DNA of 48,852 nucleotides from Candidatus Poribacteria bacterium (GCA_027625215.1 JAQBWJ010000001.1:1-48852), one strand, 5' to 3'. Positions 7,146 through 29,519 are shown, numbered from the stretch's first letter. Numbers and translations are program-made. The notes: generated from the letters alone by a model not told the origin.

Positions 7146-8167
7146 GCCGCGCGAGGTAGGCCCTCCTTGTCGGAGTCACCGCTGTTGAAAAGTCGCCCTT
7201 GATGGAGTTGCGCGTTCAGTCGTTCCCGCGCGTAGTCGAGGTATTCCTTCGCCGTGTCGATGCCGATGTGCCGCCGCCCGAGCTTCTCCGCGGCGAGGTT
7301 CGTCTGTCCGCTGCCCGTGAAGATATCCAGCACGAGGTCGTCCTTGTATGCGTAGAACTCGACGACCCGCTCGACGAGTTCCAGCGGGTACGGGCAGGGG
7401 TGAAGGTTCTCCTGCGGCGCCATCGGGCGGATCTTCCAGACGTTCTTGGACTTCTCGCCCTGATAGTCGGACAGGTCGATCCGGTTCGCCTCCTTTTCCT
7501 CCTTCGAGCGGCGGGCGTAGATGTTGTCGCGCTTCTTGGAGTCCGTCGTCTTCTGAAAGACAAAGATGTACTCCGCGACAAGGCTCGGATAGTAGTAGCC
7601 GGGATAGGGATGTTGGAGGAGCAGTCCGGAGCGGCGGTCTCTGGCGACCGGCTTCTCCCAGACGATGTCCTCCTTGAACGTCCAGCCGATCTCCTCCATC
7701 CAGCCGACGAAGTGGAACGGCAGCGCCGTCCGCTTTCCCTGCCAGAGGACGGGGGCGATGTTGACGACGTTGTGACCGCCGGGCTGGGTGATCCGCAGCA
7801 ATTCCTTGAAGCGGGCTTTCAGGAAGTCGCGGTACTCGTCGTAGGAGACCTCCGTCCGCTCCCAGTGATCTGTCTTGCCGTTGAGTTTGTCGCGGTGTCC
7901 GTCGTAGTTGATCGCGTTGAAGTAGGGCGGTGACGTGACCGCAAGGGTGATGAGGTTGTCCGGGAGGCTTTGCATCACGGCGAGGCAGTCGCCGAGGACG
8001 AGATGTCCTCGTCCGACTGGAGAGACCTCGAAATGACGGACGCAGGCGTCAAGGAGATCGGATGAGGTCTGTGGTTGGACCGCCGGTGAGCTTTGGAGTT
8101 GTGTGATCGGATCGGACATGAATGGGTGGGCGCGGATTCCGGAACCCGCGCGGTGATGTGCGTTCAC
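7142..8167 (-). CDS. DNA methyltransferase, beta-class N4/N6 (SPPY, likely m4C)
   Basis: Motif IV TSPPYFNAINY lies N-terminal to motif I DIFTGSGQT. The true start may be M17 at 8119. Confidence 0.85.
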   Translation of the reverse strand: MNAHHRAGSGIRAHPFMSDPITQLQSSPAVQPQTSSDLLDACVRHFEVSPVGRGHLVLGDCLAVMQSLPDNLITLAVTSPPYFNAINYDGHRDKLNGKTDHWERTEVSYDEYRDFLKARFKELLRITQPGGHNVVNIAPVLWQGKRTALPFHFVGWMEEIGWTFKEDIVWEKPVARDRRSGLLLQHPYPGYYYPSLVAEYIFVFQKTTDSKKRDNIYARRSKEEKEANRIDLSDYQGEKSKNVWKIRPMAPQENLHPCPYPLELVERVVEFYAYKDDLVLDIFTGSGQTNLAAEKLGRRHIGIDTAKEYLDYARERLNAQLHQGRLFNSGDSDKEGLPRAA

Positions 8168-8171
8168 CCTA

Positions 8172-8684
8172 TCACAGATCGTGCCGCTTGTGGAGGGCAG
8201 TCACGGCAAGCGCGACGGCGAACGCCGCCGTCCATCCCTCCGGCAAGCCGTTGAGAGGTGCGCGTCGCGTCGGTTGGCGGAGCAGGGGGAATCGCGTTTG
8301 GGTCGCTTCCAGCAGGTTGATGTGTGTCGCGTCCGAATCGCCGCACAGGACGCGCTTCGCTTCGGACAGGGAGACGCGCGTGATGCGGACGCCGGGCAGG
8401 AGTTCCGGTCGAATCGCCTCGTCGAGCGTCCGTCGGAGCACGCCTGAGGATGCCGGATCGTCATCGACCGCTTCGGCGGCGACCGTGACGTGACCAACGT
8501 CGGGGATCGACTCGCTCACGAGTCGAGGAACGATCCGCTGCAATAGGGGCGGCGTCTTGCGTCCGCGCACCGTCCTGACACCGAACCGAACAAGCCCATC
8601 CCGCTCGAAGACCGCGAAGCCGGTCTCCCTCCCACGGGCGAACAGTCCGACGATGATTTCCCTCCGGTCTGTCATAGTCTCCAT
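8172..8684 (-). CDS. RuvC/RNase-H-fold-like protein, probably catalytically inactive
   Basis: Colinear by eye with RuvC: IIVGLFARGRETGFAV against ILGIDPGS..GYGV, AAEAV against AIEQV, and C-terminal AVALAVTALH. The first and last acidic residues are replaced. Confidence 0.35.
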   Translation of the reverse strand: METMTDRREIIVGLFARGRETGFAVFERDGLVRFGVRTVRGRKTPPLLQRIVPRLVSESIPDVGHVTVAAEAVDDDPASSGVLRRTLDEAIRPELLPGVRITRVSLSEAKRVLCGDSDATHINLLEATQTRFPLLRQPTRRAPLNGLPEGWTAAFAVALAVTALHKRHDL

Positions 8685-8720
8685 GAACGTATGAACGTCA
8701 TGAACATGCGGGCGGTCGCG

Positions 8721-10124
8721 CTATGCCGACGGCTCCGATGTTTCCGACGTTGGTTCTGTCGAGTCCTCAGGCGTTTCCGACTCCTGCGGCACGTTCATCA
8801 TGTTCATACGTTCATCTCGTGATTCCGGCGCTTTCAGCCCAAATCGTTCCATCAACCGCTCGACCTTGGGGTGCTCGCTCTCCGGGATCACGTAGCCCTC
8901 CATCCTCCGCTCCGTCTTCAGGTGGAGTTTCCGCCGGATCAGACTCCCGATCCACTTTGGATTGATCTTCTTGTCGTAGTCGTCCTCGTGCTTCTCCTTG
9001 AACCGCTCCGCGATCTCGCCGACGGAGACGACTTCCTCGCGTTCCCGCAACTCGGCGATCACCTCGAGCAGATGTCCTTCGATGTCCATGCCCTTGTCGG
9101 AGATGTATTGCCGGTGGTACTCCCGCATCGTCGCCTTCAGGTCGGACAGCGTCTCTTCGTCGTCGATGATGCTCAATAGCGGTACGAACACCTGATTCAT
9201 GCGCGGCTCGATCGAGCGATCCACCAAGTCGGGCGAGGCGTGATGCTTCCCAACGTGGCGAAACCGGAACATGAGAAGACGATTGCGGATCGCCGTCGCC
9301 TCGTCCCAGAAAACGTCCGGCAGGTTGATCGGCACGTCGTCCCGAAGCCGCCGCTGTCCCATTTCCTCGGTCAGACACCGGCTTTCCAGCGCGCGGTCGG
9401 CGAAGAGGCTCCGCGTCCCGATCAGTTTTGGACCGTAGACATGGTAGGCGCGCGGGTTGTACTCCTTGCCGTTGGTCGTCTCGCTCCGCAGGACGGGGAA
9501 CCCCTTCGCGTTCCCGTTGTTGAAGATTTTGACAATTTCCGCCTTCTCGTCGGACTGGCGGAAGTCGCCCTCGTCGATCAGCAGCGTTCCCTTGAAGATG
9601 TCGAGGATGCGGAACAACGGCGAGACGGTGGATGCGCCGCTGGCGAAGATCGGCTTGTAGCAGAGGGAGCCGACCGTCAGCAGAAAGCGCGTCTTGCCAC
9701 TGCCGGCGTCACCCAGGACGCGCAGGTAGGGGAGTTCGTTGAAGTCGTCGTAGATCCACGTCAAGAGGACATAGTAGGCGCAGAGCCGCTCGAAGGTCGG
9801 CGTCACATCGACGTAGCCGTGCAGGAAGTCCTGAATCGCCGACAGCAACTCCGCTTCGGAGTCGTATTCGACCGGCTCCGTTGGCAGGAGGACGATCCGA
9901 TTGCGGATCAGGTTGTTCTTCGGCGAATACGGGAGGAGCGTTTCGCCGTTGGGAAGCGCCATCCGATCAAGGAGTTTCCAAGCACCGTCGGTAAAGACCG
10001 CGTAGCCCGATTTTTCGCCGTCGTAGAGCATCTCGCCGACCGTTCCGTCGTCCAGACGGAAAGACGGCGTCACCGTGACGTTCTTATGCTTATAGTCCTT
10101 TGAGGTGATCCGTTTGAGAGCCAT
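8721..10124 (-). CDS. P-loop NTPase of unknown family (possible SF3-like replication helicase)
   Basis: Walker A LGDAGSGKT, Walker B TLLIDEGDF, followed by IFNNGN. Has a winged-helix-like acidic C-terminus. Confidence 0.7.
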   Translation of the reverse strand: MALKRITSKDYKHKNVTVTPSFRLDDGTVGEMLYDGEKSGYAVFTDGAWKLLDRMALPNGETLLPYSPKNNLIRNRIVLLPTEPVEYDSEAELLSAIQDFLHGYVDVTPTFERLCAYYVLLTWIYDDFNELPYLRVLGDAGSGKTRFLLTVGSLCYKPIFASGASTVSPLFRILDIFKGTLLIDEGDFRQSDEKAEIVKIFNNGNAKGFPVLRSETTNGKEYNPRAYHVYGPKLIGTRSLFADRALESRCLTEEMGQRRLRDDVPINLPDVFWDEATAIRNRLLMFRFRHVGKHHASPDLVDRSIEPRMNQVFVPLLSIIDDEETLSDLKATMREYHRQYISDKGMDIEGHLLEVIAELREREEVVSVGEIAERFKEKHEDDYDKKINPKWIGSLIRRKLHLKTERRMEGYVIPESEHPKVERLMERFGLKAPESRDERMNMMNVPQESETPEDSTEPTSETSEPSA

Positions 10125-10133
10125 AGGGTGGGG

Positions 10134-10430
10134 TTAATCGTCGTAACGCACGTCGCGGTGGACGCGATTCGCCCGGTCTTTCAGTTCCTCGATCGCGTAC
10201 ATGAACGTCCGGGCATCGACGAGCGCCTTTGGTCCGATCTGAAACTGTCGCACAAGCTGCATCCGCTCGGCGGCGTCCTTGAAGCCGAATCGGTGCCGTC
10301 CCCAAGCGTCCGTTTCCGCTGTCGAGAGCCACATGCCGTGCGCGACGAGGAACGCGGCAAGATAGAGCGAGTCCGTGTGGAACGTGCCCGGCGTCGTGTA
10401 CGAGGATGGTTGTCGGTCAGGCTTTGTCAT
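10134..10430 (-). CDS. DUF5659-like small protein
   Basis: The real gene is the last 98 codons of track ORF 10134..10922 (start MTKPDRQ). FHTDSLYLAAFLVAHGM...ARTFMYAIEELK fits DUF5659. Confidence 0.65.
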   Translation of the reverse strand: MTKPDRQPSSYTTPGTFHTDSLYLAAFLVAHGMWLSTAETDAWGRHRFGFKDAAERMQLVRQFQIGPKALVDARTFMYAIEELKDRANRVHRDVRYDD

Positions 10431-10744
10431 TGGATAGCTTGGGATGGCTTGTTGCGGCGGGATTCGATCTTCTTCCGCTCCATCCGCACCCCGTCCAGCG
10501 CGCGGCGTCGGATGTCGGGGAACAGGAACGCGACCGGCGCGCAGAGCACGACCTCCAACTTGATCGCCGTCTCGAGGCTGGGAAGCCGTTTGCCGCGTTC
10601 GTAGGCGGAGATGTGCGTCGCGGAGCGGTAGCCGAGCAGTCGAGCGACCTCCCGCTGCGTGTACCCCATCTTCTTCCGATGAATCCAGAGTCGGTTGGCG
10701 GTGAGGGAGCCGGGTTTCGATGTGTTGCGTCGTTGTGCGCACAT
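10427..10744 (-). CDS. XRE-family HTH regulator
   Basis: MGYTQREVARLLGYRSATHISAYERGKRLPSLETAIKLEVVL is an HTH_3 pattern. Start taken at M18 of track ORF 10427..10795. Overlaps the next gene by 4 nt. Confidence 0.8.
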   Translation of the reverse strand: MCAQRRNTSKPGSLTANRLWIHRKKMGYTQREVARLLGYRSATHISAYERGKRLPSLETAIKLEVVLCAPVAFLFPDIRRRALDGVRMERKKIESRRNKPSQAIQ

Positions 10745-10870
10745 GTCGTTCAGAATACCGCACCGACGGAGACAAAAAAGAGGGGAAAAGTTCACGGAGG
10801 CGGGAACATCGGACGGACATCGAGGAGCCGGCGTGAACGCTCGATGCGATTTGACAGACCGCGTTCGACC

Positions 10871-11518
10871 ATGCTATGCCGAGACGCGATGCGAAAAGCG
10901 AGAAAAGGACGCAAACGACCACAAAGAGGACAATCCGTCAACCCATGGCCCGATCTCGTCACGCTGTGGGCGTTGGAGGACGACGGACGACGCCGAGACC
11001 GCGTTCTCGCCCGCCACAGCCTTCTGATGACGGTCATCGAGCGGACATCGCTGGAACGGTTCCGTCAGGCGCTGGGCGATCCTCAAACGGACTGGCGATT
11101 TCACCTCGACGCCGGGATCGGATACGACCTCGACCGCCTTCAGGAGAGGATGGGAACGGCATACGGAACGGGAACGCTGAATCGGAACGACCTGATCGCG
11201 CATACCATGCCGCTCCATGACCGCGCCCTCGAAGCGTTGGGCAACGCGCGGCGAGTCGCTCGACAGGACGGCAACACAGACGAACGGATGAACGTTGGAC
11301 AAGCGCTGCTCGATGCCACCGAAAGCCTCTACGACCGGATCGAACGTGTGATCGACCGGAAGTCCCATGAGCATTTTCTTGCCGACGGACTGTCCAAGAC
11401 CCAAGCGTGGCTGGAGCGTCACGCCGACCATCACGGGAAAGTCGCCGCGCAGCGAGATCGCCTGCGGTCCGCGCAACAGCGTCACAGGGACGACCGCGCT
11501 CCACAGCAACCCGCTTGA
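10871..11518 (+). CDS. Hypothetical protein upstream of the serine recombinase
   Basis: Only the 3' part of track ORF 10406..11518 has strong GC3 bias. Candidate starts are 10844, 10871 and 10889. A TTGACA lies at 10851-10856. Confidence 0.5.
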   Translation: MLCRDAMRKARKGRKRPQRGQSVNPWPDLVTLWALEDDGRRRDRVLARHSLLMTVIERTSLERFRQALGDPQTDWRFHLDAGIGYDLDRLQERMGTAYGTGTLNRNDLIAHTMPLHDRALEALGNARRVARQDGNTDERMNVGQALLDATESLYDRIERVIDRKSHEHFLADGLSKTQAWLERHADHHGKVAAQRDRLRSAQQRHRDDRAPQQPA

Positions 11519-11551
11519 GCGATTTCGTCCGTCTGTTATGCTGAAGCCGAC

Positions 11552-13753
11552 ATGACCCGCTCGACATCGCCCAACCCAACCCTCCGCGCCGCGCTCTACG
11601 CCCGCGTCTCCTCCGAAGAGCAGGCGCGGGGACACAGCCTCGACGCTCAACAGGACAAACTCCAAGAGTTCGCCGCGCGGCACGAGATGACCGTCAACGG
11701 CGAACACGTCTACGTCGACGACGGCTACTCCGGCAAGAACGAACACCGCCCTCACCTGACGCGGCTCTTTCAGGACGCCGAGAAGAAGGCGTTCGACCTC
11801 GTGCTGGTCTACCGACTCGACCGCTTCTTTCGCAACACCCGCCTGCTGCTCGACAGCGTGGAACGTCTGGCACAACTCGGCGTCGGCTTCAAGTCGATCA
11901 CGGAACCGTTCGACACCTCGACGCCGCTGGGCAAATACATGCTGACCAACCTTGGCGCGATCGCGGAACTGGAACGCGGCATCATCTTGGAACGCAAGGA
12001 GCTTGGAACACGGAAAGCTGCCGAAGCGGGCAAATGGATGGGCGGACTCCCGCCCTACGGATACCGGATCGATCCCAAGACGAAGAAACTGGTCGTCGTT
12101 CCCGAAGAGGCGAAGGTCGTGCGAATGCTGTTCCGGTGGCTCATCGACGAGGGGATCAGCCTGTTTCAAATTCAGAAGCGCCTCAACGAACGGCGGATTC
12201 CGACGAAGTTCGATCTGCTTGGGCGCGACAAGCCCACCGGTGCGGTCGGATGGTGGCGGAAATCGACGGCGGGGCGCATTCTCGCGAATGAGACCTACGC
12301 GGGAACCTTTTGGTTTCGGAAGTGGAAGCGTCCCACCTCCGCCCGACGCCCGGAGAACCTCCGTCCGAAGGAGGACTGGGTCGCGATCCCGACGCCCGCG
12401 ATCGTCTCGAAGGAGCGGTTTCAACAGGCGCGGAAGCAGCTGGAGGAAAACTCCAGGAACGCGCCGCGTCGGACGAAACGCGCCTACCTGCTGGCGAAGA
12501 AGCTGCGCTGCGGGCGATGTAGCGGGATGATGTCCGCGCAGTGCCGCGTATGGGGAAAGAACCGGTTGCGGGAATATCGCTACTACGCCTGCTACCGCAC
12601 AAGTCGACAGCACGCCGCCGTGCGCTGTCGTCAGAAGTGCGTCGGCGAGGATCGGATCGCGGTCCCGGTCTGGGACGTGTTGAAGCGGTTGCTGCTCGAT
12701 CCGGACGTGGCGTTGCGCGAACTCGAAGCGGCGAGGTCGGAAGGCGACGCGCGACCGGCGTTGGCGAAGCGGCGGGAAGCCGCCGCGCGGCGGTTGAAAC
12801 AGCTCGACGCGAAGGGAGAGCGATTGCTGGAACTGTACCTTGAAGGCGGCGTCTCCAAGAGCGTCTTCGGGACGCGCAGCCGGGAGATCGAGTCGGAGAA
12901 AGAGTCCCTCGTCCACGAACTGGCGGAGTTGGAACAGTCGCTGGCAGGCGAGGAGGCACAGCGTTTGAAGGCGGCGAGCCTGCGGCAGCTCTACGAGGAA
13001 CTGAACGTGAACGTCGAGAACGCGGACTACGAGACGAAGCGGCAGGTGATCGACCTGCTGATCGAGCGAATCGTCGTTCATGAGGATCGGTTGGAGGTCG
13101 TCCTGATTTCGCCGGACCTGAGCCAAGACCCGCCGAAGGAAGTCCGGCTGCCGCTGAATCCGTCGGGCGGATCGCCTCATTCTGCGGTCCCGTCTCCGCC
13201 GAACGGGAACCATGTCTCTTTGCGTCCACATCGACGAGTGGATTGGGACGCAAAGAGACGTTGGCGCGTCGTCGTCCCGCCGTTGACTCTCTCGGAGGCG
13301 CGTGGTCTCGCGAACAGGCGCTACGGGTTGAAGCGGAACCTGTTCCATCGTGACGGGCGGCTTAAAGCGCGTTTGGGCGGCAAGCCGAAGCGTGAGTACT
13401 CGCTGAAATGGCACTTGGAGCGGTTTCGTTGTCCACAAGCGCGGATGCGGTTTCGGTGCGTCCGGAAGATGATCCTCCAAACAAGCGACTTCAAGGAGGA
13501 GCGCCGCAAGGACTACATCGCCTATATCGATCGCGGACGGTACAACCGGTTCCTGCTGTTCCCGCAGCGCCGGGGATTCCGTCTGGCTATCAAGGGAACG
13601 GACGCAAGGGTCGAGGGCGTACCACGCGGTTCTTGCGACGGCATCCAGACCTTCTTCAACATCTGCGAGGACACGTCGCTGTCCGCCGTCGAGCGCGCCA
13701 TCCGCGAACACGCCGCGCGTCCGTTTCCATGTCTGCCGGAGCCGAAGCGGTAG
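11552..13753 (+). CDS. Large serine recombinase with about 190-aa C-terminal extension
   Basis: AALYARVSSEEQ (catalytic Ser), a recombinase domain, a Zn ribbon (CGRCSG...YYAC...C) and a coiled coil, with canonical homology ending near aa 520 (IERIVVHEDRLEVVL). The ORF then runs on to 13753. Confidence 0.85.
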   Translation: MTRSTSPNPTLRAALYARVSSEEQARGHSLDAQQDKLQEFAARHEMTVNGEHVYVDDGYSGKNEHRPHLTRLFQDAEKKAFDLVLVYRLDRFFRNTRLLLDSVERLAQLGVGFKSITEPFDTSTPLGKYMLTNLGAIAELERGIILERKELGTRKAAEAGKWMGGLPPYGYRIDPKTKKLVVVPEEAKVVRMLFRWLIDEGISLFQIQKRLNERRIPTKFDLLGRDKPTGAVGWWRKSTAGRILANETYAGTFWFRKWKRPTSARRPENLRPKEDWVAIPTPAIVSKERFQQARKQLEENSRNAPRRTKRAYLLAKKLRCGRCSGMMSAQCRVWGKNRLREYRYYACYRTSRQHAAVRCRQKCVGEDRIAVPVWDVLKRLLLDPDVALRELEAARSEGDARPALAKRREAAARRLKQLDAKGERLLELYLEGGVSKSVFGTRSREIESEKESLVHELAELEQSLAGEEAQRLKAASLRQLYEELNVNVENADYETKRQVIDLLIERIVVHEDRLEVVLISPDLSQDPPKEVRLPLNPSGGSPHSAVPSPPNGNHVSLRPHRRVDWDAKRRWRVVVPPLTLSEARGLANRRYGLKRNLFHRDGRLKARLGGKPKREYSLKWHLERFRCPQARMRFRCVRKMILQTSDFKEERRKDYIAYIDRGRYNRFLLFPQRRGFRLAIKGTDARVEGVPRGSCDGIQTFFNICEDTSLSAVERAIREHAARPFPCLPEPKR
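13214..13259. repeat. Perfect 14-bp inverted repeat inside the recombinase ORF
   Basis: gtctctttgcgtcc (13214-13227) and ggacgcaaagagac (13246-13259), with an 18-nt loop. Sits in a stretch of low GC3. Confidence 0.85.
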
Positions 13754-14326
13754 AAACATCGGCATACCGAATCGGGGAAGTTCTCCCCGCTACCGCGCGT
13801 CGGATCGGGATGTCACGATGAGGACATGGAGTTTCAACGGATCGTCCTCATTCCGTTCGATCAGCCGGAAGCGGAGCATCGGCGGCGGGTGCGGGAGGCG
13901 TACTACGTCCTGATGCGCGCAACGGCGCGACACATGGGGAAGACGAACGCGGCGGCATCGTCGGAAGGCGGCGCACCTTCACCACGGCACGATGATCTGG
14001 ACGACGGCGCGGGTCGATGACGGTGACGCCGAGCCGGTGGTAGATGTCCCAGACGATCATGTTCCGCAGGGGGTCGTCTTGCCGACGCCGGATATGCCGA
14101 AACTGGAGATGTGCCGTCGCTCGCCGACTTTGAGAAGGACGCGGCGGGAGCGAATCCAAGCCGCGCCCGTTGTTGTGTATGCGCCCGGCGGCCGAAGTCG
14201 CGCGGACCGGACGTTCCGGGGCTCTCCTTCCGCCTTCGCCGCAGACGGGAAACGAGCGTCGCCCGACATTCTTGGAAGCAAGCGAAGCCGCGAACGGCTC
14301 CGTCCTCTGAAGGATGAGAAGGAAAT

Positions 14327-14438
14327 GGGCGAACAACCCAACCCGAAACCCGATGTTGTTGTTCCAGTTGTTCGGGTGGTTGTTGTTGCGATTCGCGCAC
14401 GCAGCCCTGTCGCGATTGTTGTTCCACGAACCGCCGCG
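14327..14438 (-). repeat. DGR template repeat (TR)
   Basis: 112 nt aligning to 16041-16152 without gaps. The minus strand encodes RGGSWNNNRDRAACANRNNNHPNNWNNNIGFRVGLFA. It lies 47 nt downstream of avd. Confidence 0.9.
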
Positions 14439-14485
14439 CACTACCTCACCGGAAGCCCGACGGTGGAACCCGCCGCGATCCGAGA

Positions 14486-14869
14486 CTACCGTTCGTCTCC
14501 TCCGATCGCAACGCTTTCTTTCGAGATCGTTTGCGCCGATGCGCCGGTCTGCCGAAGCCAACCACCCAGCAAGCGACCGATTTCCTCGATCATTCGGCTG
14601 ACGTGTTCGTATTGACCGGCGGAGAGCCATTTCCATTGATGGGAGAGCCGGAGATAGAGCCGGAGCGTGTTCAAATAGGCGTCCGCCTCGTGTAAGCGGG
14701 CGAGACGTTCCTCGCGCCGGAGCGCGTTCGCGTGGAACAATGCCTCCTGGAAATCGAGGGCGGCGTCCATCAGACGTCGCGTGACGACGAACCGTTGCGC
14801 TTTGGGGAACTTGTCGGCGACGGGAAGAAGCCACGTCAGCAGATCGAAGGTTCGCGCGAATATGACCAT
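14486..14869 (-). CDS. avd: DGR accessory variability determinant (four-helix-bundle protein)
   Basis: [48 protein letters not shown]... is the Avd (23S-IVS four-helix-bundle) pattern. Start taken at M27 of track ORF 14486..14947 (127 aa). Confidence 0.8.
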
Positions 14870-15977
14870 CTCTTCCGGCACGACATTCGCCTCGATACTC
14901 GAGTGGGAGAATCTCGTCAACGCCTTCCGCAAAGCCGCGAAGGGCAAGCGCGGACGACCACCTGCCGCGCGGTTCGAGGTCGGCGTTGCCGACCGCCTGA
15001 TCGACTTGCAGCGGGAACTCCGCGATGGAACTTACGCGCCCGGCGCGTACCGTCATTTCTTCATTCACGAACCGAAACGACGGCTCATCAGCGCGGCTCC
15101 CTTTCGGGATCGGGTCGTCCACCACGCGCTCTGCAACCGAATCGAGCCGGTCTTCGATGCCCGCTTCATCCCCGACAGCTACGCGAATCGACGACGTAAG
15201 GGAACCCATGCCGCCCTCGACCGGCTTCAACAGTTCGCCCGCCGTTGGCGATACGTCCTCCGCATGGACGTCGTGAAGCATTTCCCCTCGCTCGACCACG
15301 CGATTCTGACGGACGAAATCGCCCGCGTCGTTCAAGACGAGCGAACGTTGTGGCTTGTCCGTATCATCCTCGACAGCGGCAAGGATACGTTCGCCGACGA
15401 GGTCGAGCCGGTCGTCTTTCCGGGCGACGACCTGTTCGCCGCGCTCCGTCCGCGCGGACTTCCCATCGGAAACCTCACGAGCCAGTTCTGGAGCAACGTC
15501 TACCTGAACCCGTTCGACTGGTTCGTGAAACGCGAACTCCGCTGTCCCGCCTACCTCCGCTACGTGGACGACTTCGCGCTGTTCGGCGACGACAAATCGC
15601 AGTTATGGGAGTGGAAATCCGCCGTCATCGAGCGCCTGCAACGACTTCGCCTGACGATTCACGAATCGCAAGCGCAGGTCGCGCCTGTCAAGGACGGCAT
15701 CCCGTGGCTCGGGTTCGTCGTCTATCCCGACCATCGCCGTTTGAAACGGCGCAACGTCGTGAAGTTCACGCGGCGGCTGCGACGCAACCTCGACCTCTAC
15801 GACAAAGACGCGATCTCTTTCGCGGAACTGGACGCCTCCGTCAAGGGCTGGGTGAACCACGTCCGGTACGCCGACACGTGGGGCTTGCGCCAACACGTTT
15901 TCTCGCGCCATCCGCTTCCTGACCCGCCGAAGCCCAAACCCCGCCGGAAAACACGCAGCCAACGGCTGTATACATAA
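14862..15977 (+). CDS. DGR reverse transcriptase
   Basis: [20 protein letters not shown]-terminus, the DGR hallmark [16 protein letters not shown], and the catalytic YVDDFALFG motif. Start taken at M28 of track ORF 14781..15977. Confidence 0.9.
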
Positions 15978-16040
15978 CCTTTCGCCAAAATTTTTATGTT
16001 TCAAGAGTTCAGAGTTATCAGAGATCAGAGGATCACTGAG

Positions 16041-16152
16041 GGGCGAACAACCCAAACCGAAACCCGACGTAGCTGTCCCCGCCGCTCGGGAGGGAGCCGC
16101 CGCGATCCGCGCACGCAGCCCAGACGCGAATGACGTTCCACGAACCGCCGCG
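16041..16152 (-). repeat. DGR variable repeat (VR)
   Basis: 22 mismatches to the TR. 20 of them fall on the 28 TR adenines and 2 do not. Encodes RGGSWNVIRVWAACADRGGSLPSGGDSYVGFRFGLFA. Confidence 0.9.
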
Positions 16153-16164
16153 CCGCGCTTTCCA

Positions 16165-17640
16165 CTAATTTGTTGAGTATACATCTGTAATATAAGGGGC
16201 GTACCATTCGTTTAGACACCACTCCCACACGTTGCCGGACATGTCCAACGCTCCGAACGCGGACGCGCCCGAAGGATACGACCCGACCGGCGTTGTCTCG
16301 CCGACTATTCCTGCCACGTTCGCGCGACCTTCTTCCCAGTCGCCCCACGGGTATTCCCGCGCCTCCGCGCCGCCCTGAGCCGCCCACTGCCATTCCCACT
16401 CCGCCGGCAACCGGACTTCCCATTCGACGCCGTTCACCAACAGCCCGCCTGCCGACACATCCGCGTTCTTCGCCCGCATCCGGGCGTTGAGCCAGCGCGT
16501 GTAAGCGACCGCCTGATACCACGTGACTCGCTCGCGCGGAACGTCGGGAAGGTCGTTGAACTGATTCTCCAACGCGCGTTGCGGCGGAGTGTATTGCGCC
16601 GGCATGTCGCGCCACCATTCCGGGTTGTCGAACCCGTCCGCCGATTGGACGAAGGCGTCGTATTGCGCGTTCGTGATCTCGTGCTTGGCGATGTAGAACG
16701 GCTCCACGTCGAACGTTGCGCCGTTTCTGAGCGTAATGCTGCCGCCCGGCGACACCGGCAGGAAGACGATGCCTTCCGACTCGAAGGAGGAGCCGGTTCC
16801 GCCGTTGCTCGGCTTCTCTCCTGATTCGGGGTCTAGTGTCTGCTGAAGGTCGTTCAACGCGACGGATTTATCGGCCTTCGCCTGTTCATTCCGCACGAGT
16901 TGGCCGAGCGCAGCGTCCGTAACAGCAACGGCTCCCTGTTCTAAGATTTCTTCGCCTACGAATACCCCTGCGACGGTCAGCGCTCCGTCGGCGAGTTCGA
17001 GGGCGTGAGCAATCTCCGAATCCGGCGCTTCTTCCTGCGCGATATACATCGCCCCTTTTGTAAGAAATCCCCCGCAGGCCACGACAGCCGCAACGATTCC
17101 TATATGCGGCGGTATAAGAGCAAGCACCCCGCTGAGAACGCAGGACATGGCGCTAAAACCGAGGTGCATAGCAATTAGCTGGCTTTCGGTCGTCCCTTGT
17201 AGAGCAAGCGCTGGAGAGGCCTGGAGATCGTCATGACGTTCGACACCGCGCACCACTTCGGTTGTGCCGTCCGGTCGAAGCACGCCGACATCAACCGTCG
17301 TGTCCGTCCAGTTGTCGAAGAGGAATGTATAGCCTTCGCCGAACGCCTCGATTGGGAGTCCGTCCGAACCCACTTTCATCAAAAGCGATGAGCCGTCGGG
17401 AGTCGTGAACACGCCGCCTGAAGCGGTTGCGCCTCCATCGTCGCTCAACAGAGTGAACGTTTCGCCTGTCTTATAAACGACGAATGCCGGAGCTTTCGGG
17501 TTGTCGGAGACAAACGCCCATGCGTCGGCGTTGTCGATTTCTGCGAAGTCGGAGTTATCTTTGTCTTCGCCGCATGACAATGCCCACATCGAGACCAAGC
17601 AGAACGCCAATACTCCCGCGAGCCATCTCCAGCGCGTCAT
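16165..17640 (-). CDS. DGR target: exported FGE-sulfatase/C-type-lectin-fold protein, ORF as it stands (stops at TAG before the VR)
   Basis: Signal or lipobox-like N-terminus (LVSMWALSC). The C-terminal half has FYIAKHEITNAQY...VTWYQAVAYTRWL...GNVWEWC. The same frame continues after the TAG at 16165-16167 through the VR to a TGA at 16033-16035. Confidence 0.85.
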   Translation of the reverse strand: MTRWRWLAGVLAFCLVSMWALSCGEDKDNSDFAEIDNADAWAFVSDNPKAPAFVVYKTGETFTLLSDDGGATASGGVFTTPDGSSLLMKVGSDGLPIEAFGEGYTFLFDNWTDTTVDVGVLRPDGTTEVVRGVERHDDLQASPALALQGTTESQLIAMHLGFSAMSCVLSGVLALIPPHIGIVAAVVACGGFLTKGAMYIAQEEAPDSEIAHALELADGALTVAGVFVGEEILEQGAVAVTDAALGQLVRNEQAKADKSVALNDLQQTLDPESGEKPSNGGTGSSFESEGIVFLPVSPGGSITLRNGATFDVEPFYIAKHEITNAQYDAFVQSADGFDNPEWWRDMPAQYTPPQRALENQFNDLPDVPRERVTWYQAVAYTRWLNARMRAKNADVSAGGLLVNGVEWEVRLPAEWEWQWAAQGGAEAREYPWGDWEEGRANVAGIVGETTPVGSYPSGASAFGALDMSGNVWEWCLNEWYAPYITDVYSTN

Positions 17641-17689
17641 CGCTCCGTCCTCCCGTCCGGTGTGTCGTGAACGAACACATCAGTAGACT

Positions 17690-18217
17690 TTACCACTTCT
17701 CGCGGAACTCGCGCACCGCTTCTTCCGGAGATAGATTCAAATATAACTCAGTTGTAGAGAGGCGGTCATGCCCCAGAAGCGACTGTAGCGCGCGCGTCGA
17801 GATGCCCTTCTGGACGCACATGACGGAGAACGTGTGCCGAAGCACGTGCGGGCTCACCGGCTTGGCGATGCCGGCGCGGTTGGCGACGCGCTTGACGAGC
17901 CGCTGAACCGTCCTGTCCGACATCCCGATCTCGTTCTCGAACGCGAATTGCTTCTCCAGCAGCAGGCGGACCCGCCCGGTCATCGGGACGATCCGCCGCT
18001 TCGTCTTCTTACCGTACGGACCGCCTTTGCCAAAGATCACCAGCCGGCGTTCCTGCCACTGGATGTTGTCCTTCTTCAGTCCGGCGAACTCCGCGACGCG
18101 CAGTCCCGTGTCGAGCAACGTGAAGACGACGAGTTTCTCCTCGAACGACTCGGCGGCGTTGACGAGCCGGTCGGTCTCCTCGCGGTTGAGCGGTTCGCGT
18201 TTGTGTTGGTAGGGCAT
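17690..18217 (-). CDS. Minimal tyrosine recombinase (catalytic domain only, 175 aa)
   Basis: GLRVAEF (Arg), HVLRHTF, LLGH and ELY catalytic pattern. No N-terminal core-binding domain. Confidence 0.85.
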   Translation of the reverse strand: MPYQHKREPLNREETDRLVNAAESFEEKLVVFTLLDTGLRVAEFAGLKKDNIQWQERRLVIFGKGGPYGKKTKRRIVPMTGRVRLLLEKQFAFENEIGMSDRTVQRLVKRVANRAGIAKPVSPHVLRHTFSVMCVQKGISTRALQSLLGHDRLSTTELYLNLSPEEAVREFREKW

Positions 18218-18380
18218 GGTGACGACGCCTCCGATAAGTGGATGGTGTCGTTCATTCTACCAAAAGACGACAGGATGTCGCAATCTCTGAATTGCCGACC
18301 CGCATGGATATTGAAGTGTCAGGAAGGGGAGGGGAGGGCGTGTCGCACTTTTACACAGAAGGCGACAGATAAGGACATCG

Positions 18381-18659
18381 TCAGATCGTTTTAACCACTG
18401 CTTGTACTGACGGACGACCAAGCAAAGATACAAGAGGTTGACCACTTTCGAGCGCGCTGCAGAGTGAACTGTAGGTCGCGAAGTTGACCCGAAAGCTCAT
18501 TGGAGTTCCGTCAGAGCTGGCGATAGTTATGAGCTGAACGTTTGACCGTACGACATTCTGAACGCTCAACAGGAGGTAAGTATCCGCGCCTGCCTCATGT
18601 TCAAACCGTAGGTACATTACATGATGTCCTTCCAAGGAACGGCAGTAGTCAGTCATCAA
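18381..18659 (-). CDS. Hypothetical small protein in the low-GC island
   Basis: 92-aa ORF with no recognisable motif. Composition matches the local lower-GC DNA. Confidence 0.3.
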   Translation of the reverse strand: MMTDYCRSLEGHHVMYLRFEHEAGADTYLLLSVQNVVRSNVQLITIASSDGTPMSFRVNFATYSSLCSALESGQPLVSLLGRPSVQAVVKTI

Positions 18660-18817
18660 CGCTCGTACACGCGGTCACGGAACGGCGCAAGTGCGCCAAG
18701 TCTCATTGTAACCAAGAGACAGTGCCTGGCGTAACCTCAAGGAGATGCCGGGCACTGACACGCATCACAGGGCGACAACAGGCGACGCCCGGCGCATCGG
18801 AAACAGGGAGCCACGCA

Positions 18818-19666
18818 ATGCCGAGCACTGACACGCACGCGCCGGGCACTGCCGAGCATCGGGTCAATTCAGAAGAGATGGTGTGGTTGCCGATCGCCGA
18901 AGCCGCCTCGCGGTTGAAGTGCGATCCGGGAACCATTCGTCGCCGGTTCAATAACCCGAACTACACGTTCAAATACGAACGCCGCGAAGTGTACGGCGGC
19001 GTCGAATACGGCATCCCGAAAGCGGAACTGGACGCCGTCGACGCGACAGGCAACGCCGGGCACGCAGCGGCAGGCGATGCCCGGCAACCGGAGACAATGC
19101 CGAGCGATGCCGAGCACGCGCCGCACGGCGATGCCGGGCACTCACAGGCGCACGATCATATCGCGTCGGAGTGGCGAGAAGATCTCCTCGCGCAAATCGA
19201 AATCCTCATCGCGGAGAATGCATCCCTCCAAGAGGACAAGTCCCACCTCCGCTCCATGATCGACAAACTGGATGAGGCACATCACGAAGAACTTGGTCGG
19301 CTGAAGTCTCAGTTGGAAGAGTCCCAATTCGAGAACAAGTCGAAGGACGCGAAGATCGAGGTGCTGGAAGTGCAGCTCTCCCAGCTGGAAACCGAACTGC
19401 GCGAGACGCTCCGCGAATCCGAGCAGCGGAGCACTCAGTTGGCACATCGGATCGCGGACCTTGTCCAGGAGGTCGAGCAGAATCGAACGCGCGTGTACGA
19501 ACTCGCCCCGCTCGCAAAGGAAGTTCCACGTCTCCAGGCGGCAGTTGAGGAACGGGAAGTGGGATTGATTGATGCCGAGCGTGAGCTTGCCCAAGTTCGC
19601 CAGATTGAATCGGGGCGGTTGACAGGTCCCATCTACCGCCTTTTACAGAAGAAGGTCAGGCGGTAG
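18818..19666 (+). CDS. HTH plus coiled-coil protein
   Basis: The ATG at 18818 follows GGGAG-N7. MVWLPIAEAASRLKCDPGTIRRRF is excisionase/MerR-like. A long heptad-rich region follows (LEESQFENKSKDAKIEVLEVQLSQLETELRE). An alternative start is at 18878. Confidence 0.6.
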   Translation: MPSTDTHAPGTAEHRVNSEEMVWLPIAEAASRLKCDPGTIRRRFNNPNYTFKYERREVYGGVEYGIPKAELDAVDATGNAGHAAAGDARQPETMPSDAEHAPHGDAGHSQAHDHIASEWREDLLAQIEILIAENASLQEDKSHLRSMIDKLDEAHHEELGRLKSQLEESQFENKSKDAKIEVLEVQLSQLETELRETLRESEQRSTQLAHRIADLVQEVEQNRTRVYELAPLAKEVPRLQAAVEEREVGLIDAERELAQVRQIESGRLTGPIYRLLQKKVRR

Positions 19667-19799
19667 TCGTCAGTACCTCCGAAAAATCTCTGCCTTCCAA
19701 AGAAGCGACGACATTCCGTTGTTGTTTTAAGAGTTTTGTACGTTTTAGGAGTTTTACGCGCCTGAAAACCCGCACGGTACGCGGGATTGAGCGCGCTAT

Positions 19800-20063
19800 G
19801 GTCTACATCTATGGGGTGAAAGGTCTACGGATATGGGGTGAAAGGTCTACGGATATGGGGTCAAAGGACTACATCTATGGGGTAAAGGTCTACGGATATG
19901 GGGTGAAATCAAACTCACTGTGAATCCGCATCATACCTGCATTTATCGGAATGGTCTACAGATATGGGGTCGAAAGGTCTACGGATATGGGGTTGTGATA
20001 TCTCGCGGGTTTCTGCCTCTTTGATCCGTCGGTTCTGATCGGTTAGGTCTACAGGCGTGGGGT
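19800..20063. repeat. Iteron array (8 copies of GGTCTACNNATATGGGGT plus a half-site at 20070)
   Basis: Copies start at 19800, 19822, 19844, 19866, 19887, 19953, 19976 and 20046. Spacing within clusters is 21-23 bp. An AT-richer gap lies at 19905-19952. The array sits immediately upstream of the rep gene. Confidence 0.9.
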
Positions 20064-20159
20064 CGGGAAGGTCTACAAATGACATTGTGCGACGTAGTCC
20101 TTTGCGGTATAAGGGTGACAACCGATTCCGATCTCACCTCTCGTCAAGAGGGATGCCTG

Positions 20160-21575
20160 ATGAGTGACGATCGACAGAACCTCCCGGAACCCGTCCCTGA
20201 GATTGTGGGGCCCAGTTCCGCGATCAAGCACAGCGCCGCCATCCAGATCGAGAATAGCATCTCGCTCCTGCAGCGCCGCACGTGGAACGTGCTGCTTGCG
20301 AACGCTTACGACGAATTGGCAGAGCGGGAAGTTCACACGATCAAGGTACAGCACCTGATGAACGTGCTCGGCTTTGAGAGCAAGAACGAACGCTATCTCA
20401 AAGAAGCGCTGAAAGCACTTGCGGGCTGCACGGTCGAGTGGAACCTCCTCGGCAAGGATGGGACGGAACGGTGGGGCGTGACGGCGCTCCTCGCGCAGGC
20501 GGAGATCGAGAGCGGCATCTGCACCTATGCTTACAGCCCGGTGCTGCGCCGGCGTCTGCACAACCCGAACATGTACGCGAAGATCAGCCTGAGCATCCAG
20601 AAGCGGTTCAACAGCAAGCACGCGCTCGCGCTCTACGAGCTCTGTCTGGACTATCTCTTCGAGGCGCGAAATTACGGCGAGACGCCATTCATCCCAATCA
20701 CGACATTCCGTCGGCTCATGGGACTGGACGACGGCATTTATCCGACGTTCAAGCGTCTCAATCAGCGGGTCATCAAGGAGCCCGTCGAAGAAATCAACGA
20801 TGTGACCGATCTGAACGTGCGCGTCGAATACCGGCGCAAAGGACGGAAAGTCGTCGCGGTGAAGTTCCGCATCTGGTGCACGGTGGAACTCGCCGAAAAG
20901 CCGGAACTACAGGGCGAACTCTTCCCGGATCGCTCTCAACTGCCGCCACTCGTTGCGGACCTCATCGAAGCGGGGCTACCGAAGCAGGAGGCGATGACGG
21001 TCTACGAACAGGGGTTCGACTACGTGAACCCGGATAAACGATCCCATCGCACCGACTTTGTACGGTATATCAGCGAGAAGATCGATCTGCTCCACCGCCG
21101 GCAACGTGAAGGCAAGATCAAGAACCCGGTTGGATTCCTCCTCGAAGCGATCCGGGAGGACTATACGAACTTCGAGTTCGAGGCACGTGAACGGGCGCGG
21201 ATGCGTCAAGTCATCTCTCAGGATTTGACGACGCTCCTGAAGGAGAAGGAGACCATCGAGCAGGTCTATCAGGAGGCGGTTGAGCGCGCTTGCGCCCGGT
21301 TCCTAAAGGATGATGCCGAACGCGCGCAGTCCATTCTGGACGCCGTCGTTCAATCCAACCCGTTCTATCGTTCGTACGTAGATCGCAAGAAGACCGCATT
21401 GGAGAACTACGAAGATCGCCCGTTGCTTGCCGGGGTGATCAACCATCAACTGCGAACGGACTACCCGGAGACCTTCGACAAGATCGAGCGGGAGTTCAAA
21501 GGCAAGTTATCTGAGGTTGGCGAGAAGATTGCCGTGCTTGAAGCTGAGCGCGACTCTTCGATTTCAAAGTTTTGA
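20160..21575 (+). CDS. Rep_3-like plasmid replication initiator with extended C-terminus
   Basis: LLQRRTWNVLLANAY...TVEWNLLGKDG...FNSKHALALYELCLDY...TFRRLMGL...YPTFKRLNQRVIKEPVEEINDVTDLNV...GRKVVAVKF fits Rep_3. Start taken at M28 (GAGGGA-N6-ATG) of track ORF 20079..21575. Confidence 0.8.
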   Translation: MSDDRQNLPEPVPEIVGPSSAIKHSAAIQIENSISLLQRRTWNVLLANAYDELAEREVHTIKVQHLMNVLGFESKNERYLKEALKALAGCTVEWNLLGKDGTERWGVTALLAQAEIESGICTYAYSPVLRRRLHNPNMYAKISLSIQKRFNSKHALALYELCLDYLFEARNYGETPFIPITTFRRLMGLDDGIYPTFKRLNQRVIKEPVEEINDVTDLNVRVEYRRKGRKVVAVKFRIWCTVELAEKPELQGELFPDRSQLPPLVADLIEAGLPKQEAMTVYEQGFDYVNPDKRSHRTDFVRYISEKIDLLHRRQREGKIKNPVGFLLEAIREDYTNFEFEARERARMRQVISQDLTTLLKEKETIEQVYQEAVERACARFLKDDAERAQSILDAVVQSNPFYRSYVDRKKTALENYEDRPLLAGVINHQLRTDYPETFDKIEREFKGKLSEVGEKIAVLEAERDSSISKF

Positions 21576-21675
21576 TTCACGTTTCCACAGGCTGCACAAG
21601 GTACCTCTTCTGCTCCGATGCGCAGCCCGCGCTGTCTGACGACGCGCGAACAGTATGTCTGTAAGGAGTAATCGA

Positions 21676-22710
21676 ATGCGAGACAAGCGATCCGACTATG
21701 TCATTCATTGGACTGGAAAAGACATCGACGTTGCACATCGCCTGAATCCTGCTGTTCGTCGTCAAGCGTATATAGATCGCCTTCAGCGGACACTTCGGGG
21801 CGATCCCGACCACTATCCGTCTGATCAAGAGGACGCACCTAAAGACCAGCGAGAAGCGATGCCGGGTCTATGGATGACATGGACTACTGAATCGCTGCAC
21901 GGACAACGGAACGCGACAATCCAGAACATCGTGATGCCTGCGACGTGTTTTACCGAGCTTCCGCTGACGAGCGCACGCGGACATACGACCCGATATGGGT
22001 GCATGGGATTCGGCTTCACGCGCCGGTTCGTTATGGAACGTCGTGGTAATCCTGTGTTATATGTCGCCGGCAAACCCTCATACGATGTGATTATTCAGAA
22101 CATTCGTGGCGCCATGGATATGTTCGAAGCGCTGGAAAACGCAGAAATGCAAGCGCAACAACAGACCCAACCGCCGTCGGACTTTGATCTGGACGATGCC
22201 CTGAGGGTGTTACGAGACGGCATCGGCGATCCACAACTCCAACAGACATTCGAACACCTCGAGCGTTGGCTCAGGGCAAATCCTCGGATCAGGATCAATA
22301 CGAGACAATACCCAAACTGGACGAATGCGGAAGCCTTTTTCAATCATAAAATCGGTATGTGGCTGGTCGCGGCCTTTCTCAAAAACATGTCGCAGTGTCC
22401 TGACGATGAGGATATGACGTATCTCAATGAGATGGAGTGGCGTATTGTTCACTCTCATCCCGCTGAAAACGACGGACTCCTTAGGCAGACACAGCACATG
22501 AGGGACGCGCTGGAAACTGGGCGACCAGGTCCAAATCCTCCCTGCAAGATTCCCTTCGATGCATGTCAGTTGAAAGTGTTGGTATTCCCGGACAGCGAGA
22601 CAAAGCAGACCGCGATGAATAATCCGTCGATCTTTGAATGGTTTCGCCTCTCCACCGGAGAAATGCGCTACCCAATCATCCTCACGATCGATGAACTCGA
22701 AGCTATCTGA
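21676..22710 (+). CDS. AbiGi-like (abortive-infection type) protein
   Basis: DYVIHWTG...MPATCFTELPLTSARGHTTRYGCMGFGFTRRFVMERRGNPVLYV...EMEWRIV resembles the AbiGi pattern. AAGGAG-N7-ATG at 21676. Lower GC than the surroundings. Confidence 0.45.
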   Translation: MRDKRSDYVIHWTGKDIDVAHRLNPAVRRQAYIDRLQRTLRGDPDHYPSDQEDAPKDQREAMPGLWMTWTTESLHGQRNATIQNIVMPATCFTELPLTSARGHTTRYGCMGFGFTRRFVMERRGNPVLYVAGKPSYDVIIQNIRGAMDMFEALENAEMQAQQQTQPPSDFDLDDALRVLRDGIGDPQLQQTFEHLERWLRANPRIRINTRQYPNWTNAEAFFNHKIGMWLVAAFLKNMSQCPDDEDMTYLNEMEWRIVHSHPAENDGLLRQTQHMRDALETGRPGPNPPCKIPFDACQLKVLVFPDSETKQTAMNNPSIFEWFRLSTGEMRYPIILTIDELEAI

Positions 22711-22734
22711 GACAGTTGGTCCGATAGTCAGGTT

Positions 22735-23313
22735 CTATACGATGGCATTACTGATGTCCAGCCGTCGCGCAACCTCATCCCGCTTCTTACTGGTGATCTT
22801 CGCATAGACCATCGTATTCTGAACGTTCCGGTGTCCGAGCCGATCCTGCACCTCGGCGATGTCGCAGCCCGCGTCGAGCATGTGCGTGCCGAGACTGTGC
22901 TTCAGAGCGTGCGGGCTCACCTTCGACTCATCGATTCCCGCTGCCTTCGCGTACTTCTTGATGAGCCGGAAGACGACTGTGCGGTCGATCGGGTTGCCGC
23001 GATTCGAGACGAACAGATACGGCAGGTCGTCCTCACGCGAGCGCAGGTAGGACTGGATGAGCTTCCAGCAATCCGGCGGCAACGGGTATTCGCCACCGTA
23101 GGAGCCTTTGATGCGCCGGATCGTGATGCGCCGTCGGTCGCGGTCGACGTCGTCGATATGAAGGTTCGTCGCCTCCGAGACGCGAAGCCCCATTCGATAG
23201 GTGAGGTACAAAAGCGCTTTGTCGCGCTTGCCCTGTTTCGTGTCCGTCGGGATGGCGTTCAGAAGACGTCGGAGCTCGTCCTGCGTCAGATAACGAATCG
23301 TCTTTTCGTTCAT
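22735..23313 (-). CDS. Minimal tyrosine recombinase (192 aa)
   Basis: GLRVSEA, HALKHSLGTH, RLGH and MVYAK catalytic pattern. No core-binding domain. Confidence 0.85.
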   Translation of the reverse strand: MNEKTIRYLTQDELRRLLNAIPTDTKQGKRDKALLYLTYRMGLRVSEATNLHIDDVDRDRRRITIRRIKGSYGGEYPLPPDCWKLIQSYLRSREDDLPYLFVSNRGNPIDRTVVFRLIKKYAKAAGIDESKVSPHALKHSLGTHMLDAGCDIAEVQDRLGHRNVQNTMVYAKITSKKRDEVARRLDISNAIV

Positions 23314-26108: not shown

Positions 26109-27626
26109 ATCCGCAACCGGATCGTTCCCAAGATCAAGCCGTTTGCGCTCTTGATCGGCGACCCAGATCCCTTGTCGGATCGACTCCGCCGTCGTACGTG
26201 GGGCGGGAAGATCGTAGAATGGCAGCTTGTTCGTTCGTGGAGAGCCTAACAGCTCGGCAAGGTGCGATCCCTCTTCACAGAGATCGAGGTGACGGATGAG
26301 CTCGTCCCGAACGGATGGATTCCTCGCGAGTTCGGGGGCGATTCGGAAAAGCGTCGAAGGCTGTCGCCGCGACGCTGGAATCTCAGTTCGCGTTGAATCT
26401 GGACTTCGCGGAAACCGTTCGGTCCATCTGAACGTGACACAAGACGGTCAACGCGCGATCGTCTGACGCCACGTCCGCGCTTCGACGGGGCACAAACGAT
26501 CGGCATGTGTTTTGCGCTGGTCAACGAGTCGAGTCTTGTCGGAGTCGCGCGATAGGGAGGGCGCTCATGGACAACGAAGCCGATCCGAAAGCGGTTGAAG
26601 ACGCCAACGCCAGCGCCAACGAGTGGTCAGCGAAGTATCGTGAGTCGCTTCGCCGTCGACTCGGACGGCAAGCCACTGCACCAGACGGTGACTCAGAGAC
26701 GCCCCCCCAGCACGAAAAGGGACAAATCGGCGCCCGCGCCGTCCGATGAACGCGACAAAACGCCGTCGGAACTTGACAAGGACACGTGGCAGGCGCAGTT
26801 CAACAAGGAGTTGCAACGGACGACGGAGCGTCCGTCGGAGACTATCGATCAATCTGTCGAATCTCGTGAATCAAACGATTCGCCGAACCCACCGACACCT
26901 GTTGCACCATCAACTCCATCCAAGCGTCATTGGCTGAATCCGCGTTGGATTCCGGTCGGAATCGCCGTAGTTCTGTTGATCGCTCCGCTACCGTTCATCT
27001 ACCAAGCGCGTTATCGCGAGGATCCGACCGCGTTGACCGAGACGCGAGGCGAGTCGAAACAGGCAATCGCCGCGTCACCCATATCGTCAGTCGCCGAAGC
27101 CGTCCCTCCAACAAGTTCGGTACCCGCATCCGCGCTCGTTCAGACGTACGCTCTGCTCGTGGGCGTCAGCGAGTACGACTATTGCGCAACGCTCCCTAAC
27201 CCGGTTTCTGACGTGCGAGCGCTCGATAAGGACCTGCGCGAAACGTACGGAGTCGAGACCTCGCTCCTGTTAAACCCTGATCGACAGACGTTTTTAAAGG
27301 CTCTCTATGATCTTGCCAAGATGCCGTCCGAACCCAATAGCCAACTACTGGTGTTCTTCGCGGGGCACGGATGGTTCGATGAGACGGTGCGAAAGGGTTA
27401 CATCGCGTTGAAAGATAGCCGGATGCTGGTTGACGATCCATTCGGCGATACGCTCGTCGCTCACGAGGTGATTCGATCCATTCTGGAACGGCTCGACAAT
27501 CCCCATGTCCTGTTGATGTTGGATTCGTGTTTCGGGGGAACGCTTGACCCCGTCATCGCGATGGCTCCCATCAATCGCGGTGAGGAAGCATCGTACCGGG
27601 ATCTGAGCCCCAAAAACCGCACTGGT

Positions 27627-28822: not shown

Positions 28823-29519
28823 CGGTTTCCCTCCGTTCGTTGCGGAGAGAATACCATCCGACAGCCAAAGCCGACATTAGCGATCCAGCTGGATCGGTTT
28901 TTGGGGCTCACTCCCCCGCCTCGTCTCGTCGCCCGAGTTGATTGAGCGCAAATTGGCGTACAGGACTCGCCGGTTCGTCACATCCGGCGGCAAGCAGTAT
29001 GTACCCGACGGACGCCCGGGGTACCACAGCCCCTTCGCGCATCAGTTGTTGGAAGCGCTGAGATCGAACGGAGGAAGCGATGGCATTCTGTCGTTTGAGG
29101 AACTTCTCGGCTATTTGGAACGAGTCTCTCCGCAGCCGCGCACGGGAGAACTCTCGACGAACGAAGCGGGGAGCAGTTTTCTCTTTGTGTCGCGCCACGC
29201 GGAACTCAAGCCGACGCCCGTCAAAGCCGCGTTCGGCGATCTCACGGTCGAACTGTTTCCCGCAAACGCGGAGGTGTCGCTAAGGAAACTCCGCGTTGTG
29301 GAAGGGTCTGATTCCACCGTCGGTCCTCTCTCCGTACGATCGGGCGTCCACCAGTTCCGGGTAGTGCCCGGCGCATATGCGATGATGGTAACGGCGGCGG
29401 GATATGAGCCGGTGTCTCGAGAAATCGTCGTCCGCGAAGGACCGCAGACAGAAACAGTGCGTCTTGTCAGGCAATAGGTCGGCGCCGGAACTTCAAGTAA
29501 TGCGATTAGGGAGGCGATC

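Follow-up and report, generated by a model that had tools for sequence, protein, structure and literature searches.

The target gene of a diversity-generating retroelement (DGR) carried by a Candidatus Poribacteria contig is interrupted by an in-frame TAG just upstream of its variable region (VR). The contig, 48,852 nt long and analyzed here as a whole, is referred to below as "the window". The locus is a DGR, and its target, as written, is a pseudogene. We consider it probable that the TAG is a single-base nonsense allele, that is, an ordinary and probably recent loss of function carried by the sequenced population, and that it is not programmed. The evidence for this view comes from the reading frame of the target, from the residues that related targets carry at the same column, and from the state of the remaining DGR components.

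The interrupted reading frame and the fold it encodes

As translated now, the body of the DGR target occupies 17640..16168 on the minus strand and corresponds to 491 aa in the ORF list. The ORF ends ...EWYAPYITDVYSTN (in an alternative print, …GNVWEWCLNEWYAPYITDVYSTN) and is followed by the in-frame TAG (16167..16165, minus strand). Past this codon, the frame reads WKARRGGSWNVIRVWAACADRGGSLPSGGDSYVGFRFGLFAPQ, up to a TGA at 16035..16033 (minus strand). The segment between the two stop codons (WKARRGGSW…GFRFGLFAPQ; 16164..16036, minus strand) is 43 codons long, and its translation contains no stop codon. It encodes the VR together with the final strands of the lectin fold, and it is untranslated as written. 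This TGA is where the full-length target naturally ends; the homologues terminate at the equivalent point, and their C-terminus (…GFRVGLFxP[LQ]) is coterminal with it in the alignment. The TAG is placed five codons ahead of the conserved RGGSW motif, outside the part that the DGR diversifies. The earlier note on this DNA had located the TAG here and had described the frame as continuous from it into the VR, and both the coordinates and the continuity are borne out by the sequence, its translation, and the codon view. With a sense codon at this position, the target would be 535 aa long. An open frame 3′ of the TAG fits a recent mutation or an error.

The consequence for the fold can be read from the Pfam profile FGE-sulfatase (PF03781). 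This profile matches the truncated product (E = 1.1e-33) over positions 32-196 of 255, while replacing the TAG with a sense codon lets the match reach position 252 of 255; positions 197-252 of 255 are lost by truncation. Hence, on the predicted protein, the stop removes approximately the last 56 positions (the last quarter) of the lectin-fold domain together with the entire VR. At the other end, the N-terminus of the target looks like a signal or lipoprotein-like leader (…LSC|GEDKD), and the homologues in the protein alignment carry an L-x-[AS]-C-G motif in their leader. The 491-aa product is identical to NCBI MDA1190068.1, which derives from a Candidatus Poribacteria MAG and belongs to a protein cluster with one member, on one contig.

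The TAG sits in an AT-rich patch with low GC3 (16159..16196, minus strand; GC profile, codon view, and alignment), which encodes …APYITDVYSTN, the stop, and WK. The GC content is 0.325 in 16160-16199 vs ~0.65 around it, and GC3 is 4/13 codons in the patch vs 10-12/13 in the neighboring windows. This patch had been described in the earlier note as foreign-looking. The dip in GC is confirmed, but the foreign appearance does not hold up: the patch encodes NEWYAPYITDVYSTN, which is collinear with, and of the same length as, the family loop NKWxxPYxTxVDxTNExRVLRGGS, and relatives share the dip. In an alignment with 19 homologues, there are no indels across the junction, and NEWYAPYITDVYSTN, followed by the stop and WKARRGGSW, aligns residue for residue with NKWESPHSTTVDDTNEFRVLRGGSF (P0003), NKYSPPYDIVVDTTDESRVLRGGSF (P0004), NKSDSPYSTTVYTTNEYRVLRGGSF (P0013), and others. 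At the related locus L005, the GC content of the patch is 0.41 vs 0.65 in the rest of the domain (GC3 0.36 vs 0.74); the window gives 0.41 vs 0.65 in the same comparison (GC3 0.41 vs 0.82). Moreover, GC is lower in the loop in 73/99 related targets. A search of both strands of the window with the CCTTATATTACAGATGTATACTCAACAAATTAGTGG pattern, allowing up to three mismatches, returned a single occurrence and no second copy. Collinear homology, the shared GC dip, and the single copy are the reasons for regarding the patch as a trait of the family and not as an import; judged from sequence, this loop is native to the fold, and it is rich in Asn, Tyr, Thr, Asp, and Ile. A foreign insertion or an att scar in the patch was considered and is ruled out by the same three observations.

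GC and GC3 are also depressed in the homologous loops of L005, L006, L088, L089, L016, and L106, and the dip in the loop recurs in many relatives from GC-rich genomes. The synonymous AT bias of the loop is only partly explained by its amino acid composition.

Related targets and the state of the DGR

Related loci were gathered via the RT (80 loci), via the target domain (34 loci), and through several exact protein look-ups, and the read-through C-terminal domain was used as the tblastn query for related targets. In the three closest full-length homologues (L002, L005, and L006), the column of the TAG is occupied by GAG (Glu); the ACA AAT TAG of the window corresponds to ACA AAT GAG in L005. 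The same column is CAA in L012 and L013, the RTs of which are ~71% identical to the window RT, and Lys in P0030; in the 19-homologue alignment, it is mostly Glu. No stop occurs at or near this column in any of the 103 distinct related targets that cover the junction, and the residues found there are E (18), D (17), A (15), V (9), G (8), Q (6), and others. The target-domain relatives found in genomes are at most 47% identical and mostly from Chloroflexota, and all are without a stop at this column. Comparison with orthologous targets, which the earlier note had raised, points to an ancestral sense codon. The ancestral codon would most likely have been GAG (Glu), or possibly AAG or CAG.

In-frame TAG codons do occur elsewhere in the family. 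L080 (10094-10741) and L074 (1949-2530) each carry one, in both cases a TGG→TAG change at a Trp of the conserved GNVWEW motif. These two are sporadic nonsense alleles or errors. Sporadic nonsense codons are present at scattered positions in ~2% of such genes in assemblies, and the TAG in the window is one more. A sense-codon allele or a sister copy was looked for with a back-translated WYAPYITDVYSTN-x-WK pattern, which gave no match in the metagenome and viral collections; likewise, no near-identical copy of the window locus was found in the metagenome, viral, and GTDB representative collections scanned.

The loop most similar to that of the window (…NEYDAPYIIDGLSTNKSK; also printed as …APYIIDGLSTNKSK) belongs to P0030 (MDA1192440.1), a caspase-FGE fusion. 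The P0030 record is marked partial and ends in the loop region, apparently at a contig end. The protein is probably from the same MAG as the window protein, since its accession is in the same series. In the alignment, there seems to be a frameshift within the GNVWEWC motif of P0014, and the P0008 sequence ends after …RWLNARMA. Taken together with P0030, these cases indicate that several family members are damaged or incomplete in assemblies.

The remainder of the DGR looks intact. The RT gene is intact (14862..15977, plus strand; Pfam RVT_1, E = 2.7e-15), and its translation shows the IGNLTSQ and YVDD motifs of an RT of the DGR type. A gene for the accessory variability determinant (bAvd) is present at 14486..14947 on the minus strand (Pfam PF22296, E = 6.1e-21) and itself ends in TAG. 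Just 3′ of avd, the repeat comparison identified an adenine-rich element with AAC codons (14327..14439, minus strand), the partner of which (repeat family D4) lies at 16041..16153 on the minus strand. This 113-nt pair has 81% identity and is the only long imperfect repeat of the window near the target. Of its 22 mismatches, 20 fall at adenines of 14327-14439, which identifies this copy as the template region (TR) and 16041-16153 as the VR. The other two mismatches are at 16080 and 16056; position 16056 lies close to the 3′ end of the repeat, a part in which differences between IMH and IMH* are expected. The FGE/C-type-lectin-fold protein is the only local target of this DGR. The locus departs from a DGR with its VR inside an intact target ORF: the ORF is closed by the TAG at 16165-16167, 11 nt short of the VR homology.

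The TR/VR alignment also bears on the origin of the TAG. From 16153 on, starting 11 nt (~3.7 codons) 3′ of the TAG, identity between the two copies is unbroken, and positions 16154-16157 already include differences that do not involve A (T→C, G→C, and T→G). The T of the TAG is, therefore, not a product of adenine mutagenesis, as the earlier note had argued from the point where TR homology begins. Two mismatches at positions other than adenines are not unusual for such a pair. In 32 related TR/VR pairs, detected in the same way, the number of non-A mismatches is 0 (11 pairs), 1 (12 pairs), 2 (4 pairs), 3 (3 pairs), 4 (2 pairs), or 6 (1 pair). The value for the window falls inside this range of 0-6, and there is accordingly no excess decay of its DGR. 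The intact RT and Avd, together with TR/VR mismatches of which 20/22 are at adenines, suggest that the lesion is likely young. An intact RT, Avd, and TR in combination with a stop-free VR would also fit a gene that is still expressed.

The loci with related RTs (52-81% identical, n = 80) mostly adjoin Avd and FGE-type targets. In the window, the RT gene is divergent from avd and convergent with the target. The 5′ ends of avd and the RT gene overlap head-to-head by ~85 nt (within 14486-15977), an arrangement that is found in most of the 80 related loci (L008-L087). The orientation of the TR and the side on which the target lies differ among these loci; in L025, the TR and one VR are on the RT strand, upstream of avd. 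A search for further VRs with the TR, in which A was allowed to be any nucleotide (A→N), gave no match in the GTDB representative genomes, and the source bin is hence placed outside the GTDB representative set.

Consensus error, UAG decoding, and DNA rearrangement

The earlier note had listed a recent pseudogene and a sequencing or consensus error among its options. Both fit the present evidence, i.e., GAG in the closest three homologues, a TAG that is unique among 103 targets, and an otherwise intact DGR. According to the second option, the TAG is an error of sequencing, assembly, or consensus calling, or the assembler chose a minority allele, and the true gene encodes a normal 535-aa target with a GAG-like sense codon at this position. 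Such an artefact is compatible with an intact RT and Avd, with a clean TR/VR pair, and with a full fold that is restored by one base; moreover, the contig comes from a metagenome bin, and the single-member protein cluster on one contig provides no independent confirmation of the base. A second record is, however, available. ENA scaffold_5906, the record name of which carries BioSample SAMN03444961, is 100% identical to window 6165-22847 (16,683 nt), including the TAG. That the NCBI MAG contig and the ENA scaffold have the same base makes a one-off assembler glitch unlikely, although the two assemblies may share reads, in which case their identity argues only against an assembler-specific glitch and does not amount to independent sequencing. 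A single substitution in a non-repetitive stretch of moderate GC content is also atypical for a short-read consensus error. On balance, we judge the artefact to be unlikely, though with an appreciable chance of being correct, and a consensus error to be less likely than a recent nonsense allele. The anatomy of the locus, the homology, the uniqueness of the stop, and the normal use of TAG on the contig are shown by the data; that the reads carry this allele, that it arose recently, and that the truncated protein does not function is what we infer.

Another possibility is that UAG is decoded in a programmed or tolerated manner, by readthrough, by a suppressor tRNA, or by recoding of the pyrrolysine or glutamine type, such that the stop throttles display of the diversified domain. 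The downstream frame, open and in register with the VR, and the maintenance of the DGR machinery would be expected under such decoding. The contig, however, does not avoid TAG. Among its 34 high-GC3 ORFs (at least 150 codons, GC3 > 0.66), 13 terminate in TAG, including the avd and serine recombinase genes, and reassignment of TAG is thereby ruled out. ARAGORN detected no tRNA genes, and hence no suppressor tRNA, in the 48.9-kb window, and no Rfam family was found at the gathering score. For the 141-nt segment that spans the TAG and continues downstream of it (16200..16060), the MFE is less stable than that of shuffles (z = +1.36), which gives no sign of a local RNA structure that would stimulate readthrough. 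The stop is missing from all 103 related targets and is thus not conserved, and the base that follows it is a U, which favors efficient termination in E. coli contexts. Readthrough, as proposed in the earlier note, finds no support in these data, and we regard decoding of the UAG as very improbable. A narrower version, in which the TAG is a maintained leaky gate and low UAG readthrough, or a suppressor encoded elsewhere in the genome, allows a small share of the lipoprotein to bear the diversified lectin tail, seems to us more doubtful again. If it were true, new variants would be sampled at a low dose, while the bulk of the product would be truncated and inert.

The switch-like state put forward in the earlier note would involve the DNA itself, with the patch as a scar left by recombination, an att site, or a segment that can be inverted, acted on by the neighboring serine or tyrosine recombinase, and with the TAG as one position of the switch. 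A large serine recombinase (733 aa; 11552-13753) and a short tyrosine recombinase (175 aa, catalytic domain only; 17690-18217) flank the DGR-target module, and the composition of the patch stands out, which would fit such a model. Yet the patch is without another copy on either strand of the window at up to three mismatches, and the only inverted repeat that flanks the TAG is weak (14 nt, 79% complementary; 16106-16119 / 16250-16263). Furthermore, the patch and the sequences on both of its sides are collinear with intact homologues and of the same length, with no indel, so that a flip or an excision would break conserved residues; the AT-rich loop is also present in relatives that lack these recombinases. 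An intragenic inversion is ruled out by the weakness of the inverted repeat and by the present orientation, which is the conserved coding orientation. Since this orientation is already collinear with the intact homologues, inversion could not restore a better gene. A rearrangement state is, accordingly, unsupported, and we find it scarcely credible.

The DGR and its target lie between the two recombinase genes and may constitute a cassette that can move or invert, but repeats delimiting the DGR-target module were not found.

Plasmid-like context, consequences, and comparison with known DGRs

The DGR module is 2 kb from iterons and a Rep3 gene. The repeat comparison revealed seven iteron copies of ~22 nt (19792-19997; consensus GGTCTACGGATATGGGGTGAAA-like), just downstream of which lie a gene for a Rep3-family initiator (20079-21575) and, after it, an AbiGi-like gene (21655-22710). 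The iterons and the Rep3 gene are an iteron-type plasmid origin, and because of them the contig looks like a plasmid or a plasmid-derived element.

Several other repeats are present in the window. Bases 1-85 are repeated directly at 44085-44169 (99% identical), and the repeat is followed by ~1 kb at 70-77% identity (to 950 / 45076) that spans paralogous TPR-protein genes (207-842 and 44316-44951). The two regions, 1-950 and 44085-45076, could be a duplicated gene pair, or they could mark where a 44-kb insertion, with its own copy of the target gene end, joins the flanking DNA. An inverted repeat of 42 nt (27604-27645 / 28869-28910; 76% complementary) brackets 1.2 kb. A second one, of 27 nt (8683-8709 / 8789-8815; 89% complementary, 79 nt apart), is built of repeated ATGAACGT-like units and lies upstream of the ORF 8721-10124.

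If the TAG is a nonsense allele, as we favor, a model for its consequences can be outlined. One base change would have converted a sense codon into TAG at an undiversified position. Translation would then end 43 codons early and the VR would be uncoupled from its scaffold, so that the lipoprotein-like product made by the cell would have 491 residues, and its lectin fold would be incomplete. The VR would still be transcribed on the same mRNA as the target body but would be left untranslated. For retrohoming, VR/TR homology and the 3′ IMH are sufficient, so silent rewriting of the VR may continue. In this scenario, the DGR would be unable to repair the TAG, because the TR homology ends 11 nt downstream of it. 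The RT and Avd might have been kept because the lesion is young, or because they serve other targets, for which P0030 is a candidate.

For annotation, the locus is best described as a DGR with an adjacent target pseudogene, or flagged for read-level checking; it does not constitute a case of recoding. Should both the TAG and the GAG allele occur in the population, they would represent a small case of standing loss-of-function variation in a DGR target, on a plasmid-like element of an uncultured Poribacteria lineage.

In several respects, the window resembles canonical DGRs with CLec/FGE proteins (Treponema TvpA-type; for the general mechanism, BPP-1 Mtd). The VR is positioned at the extreme C-terminus, the TR is made of AAC codons, and both a bAvd and an RT with an SQ motif are present. 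Unlike in TvpA-type and Mtd systems, the VR in the window is cut off from its scaffold by the TAG. The window also differs from canonical DGRs in that the RT gene is on the strand opposite avd, the TR, and the target. This arrangement is common to most of the 80 related loci, and it is thus a trait of the clade that is unrelated to the TAG.

Schillinger et al. 2012 (DiGReF; PMC3521204) listed DGRs in which a component has a nonsense, frameshift, or IS-insertion lesion and the TR/VR pair is still clean, and they also raised sequencing error as an alternative explanation for such lesions. The window is like the inactivated DGRs in this catalogue in that one component carries a premature stop and the TR/VR differences are almost only at adenine sites, a combination that implies either recent inactivation or a sequencing error. 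It is unlike the DiGReF examples (PMC3521204) in which the RT genes are broken, as it has an intact RT and Avd, and the break is in the target, immediately before the VR.

Decayed DGRs are known as well. Nostoc all3226 has been described as a "remnant TR-VR homology" (PMC7517822), and among the loci related to the window, L005 retains only a C-terminal remnant of 106 residues from an RT with 71% identity (9467-9784), convergent with, and right after, the intact target P0003. No avd was detected at L005, a decayed DGR with the layout seen in the window. The P0003 target is 625 aa long with a dockerin-like segment, and its context is chromosomal; L098 (6863-7102) is listed alongside L005 as an RT remnant. 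Like L005 and Nostoc all3226 (PMC7517822), the window suggests that DGR cassettes erode piecemeal. The order differs, however. In those two cases the diversifier was lost and the target kept, whereas in the window the target was hit and the diversifier kept. The comparison adds a modest data point on the order of DGR erosion, with the target first here and the RT first in L005. The kind of event is already known, and the window is an ordinary member of this class in which the hit is in the target and not in the RT.
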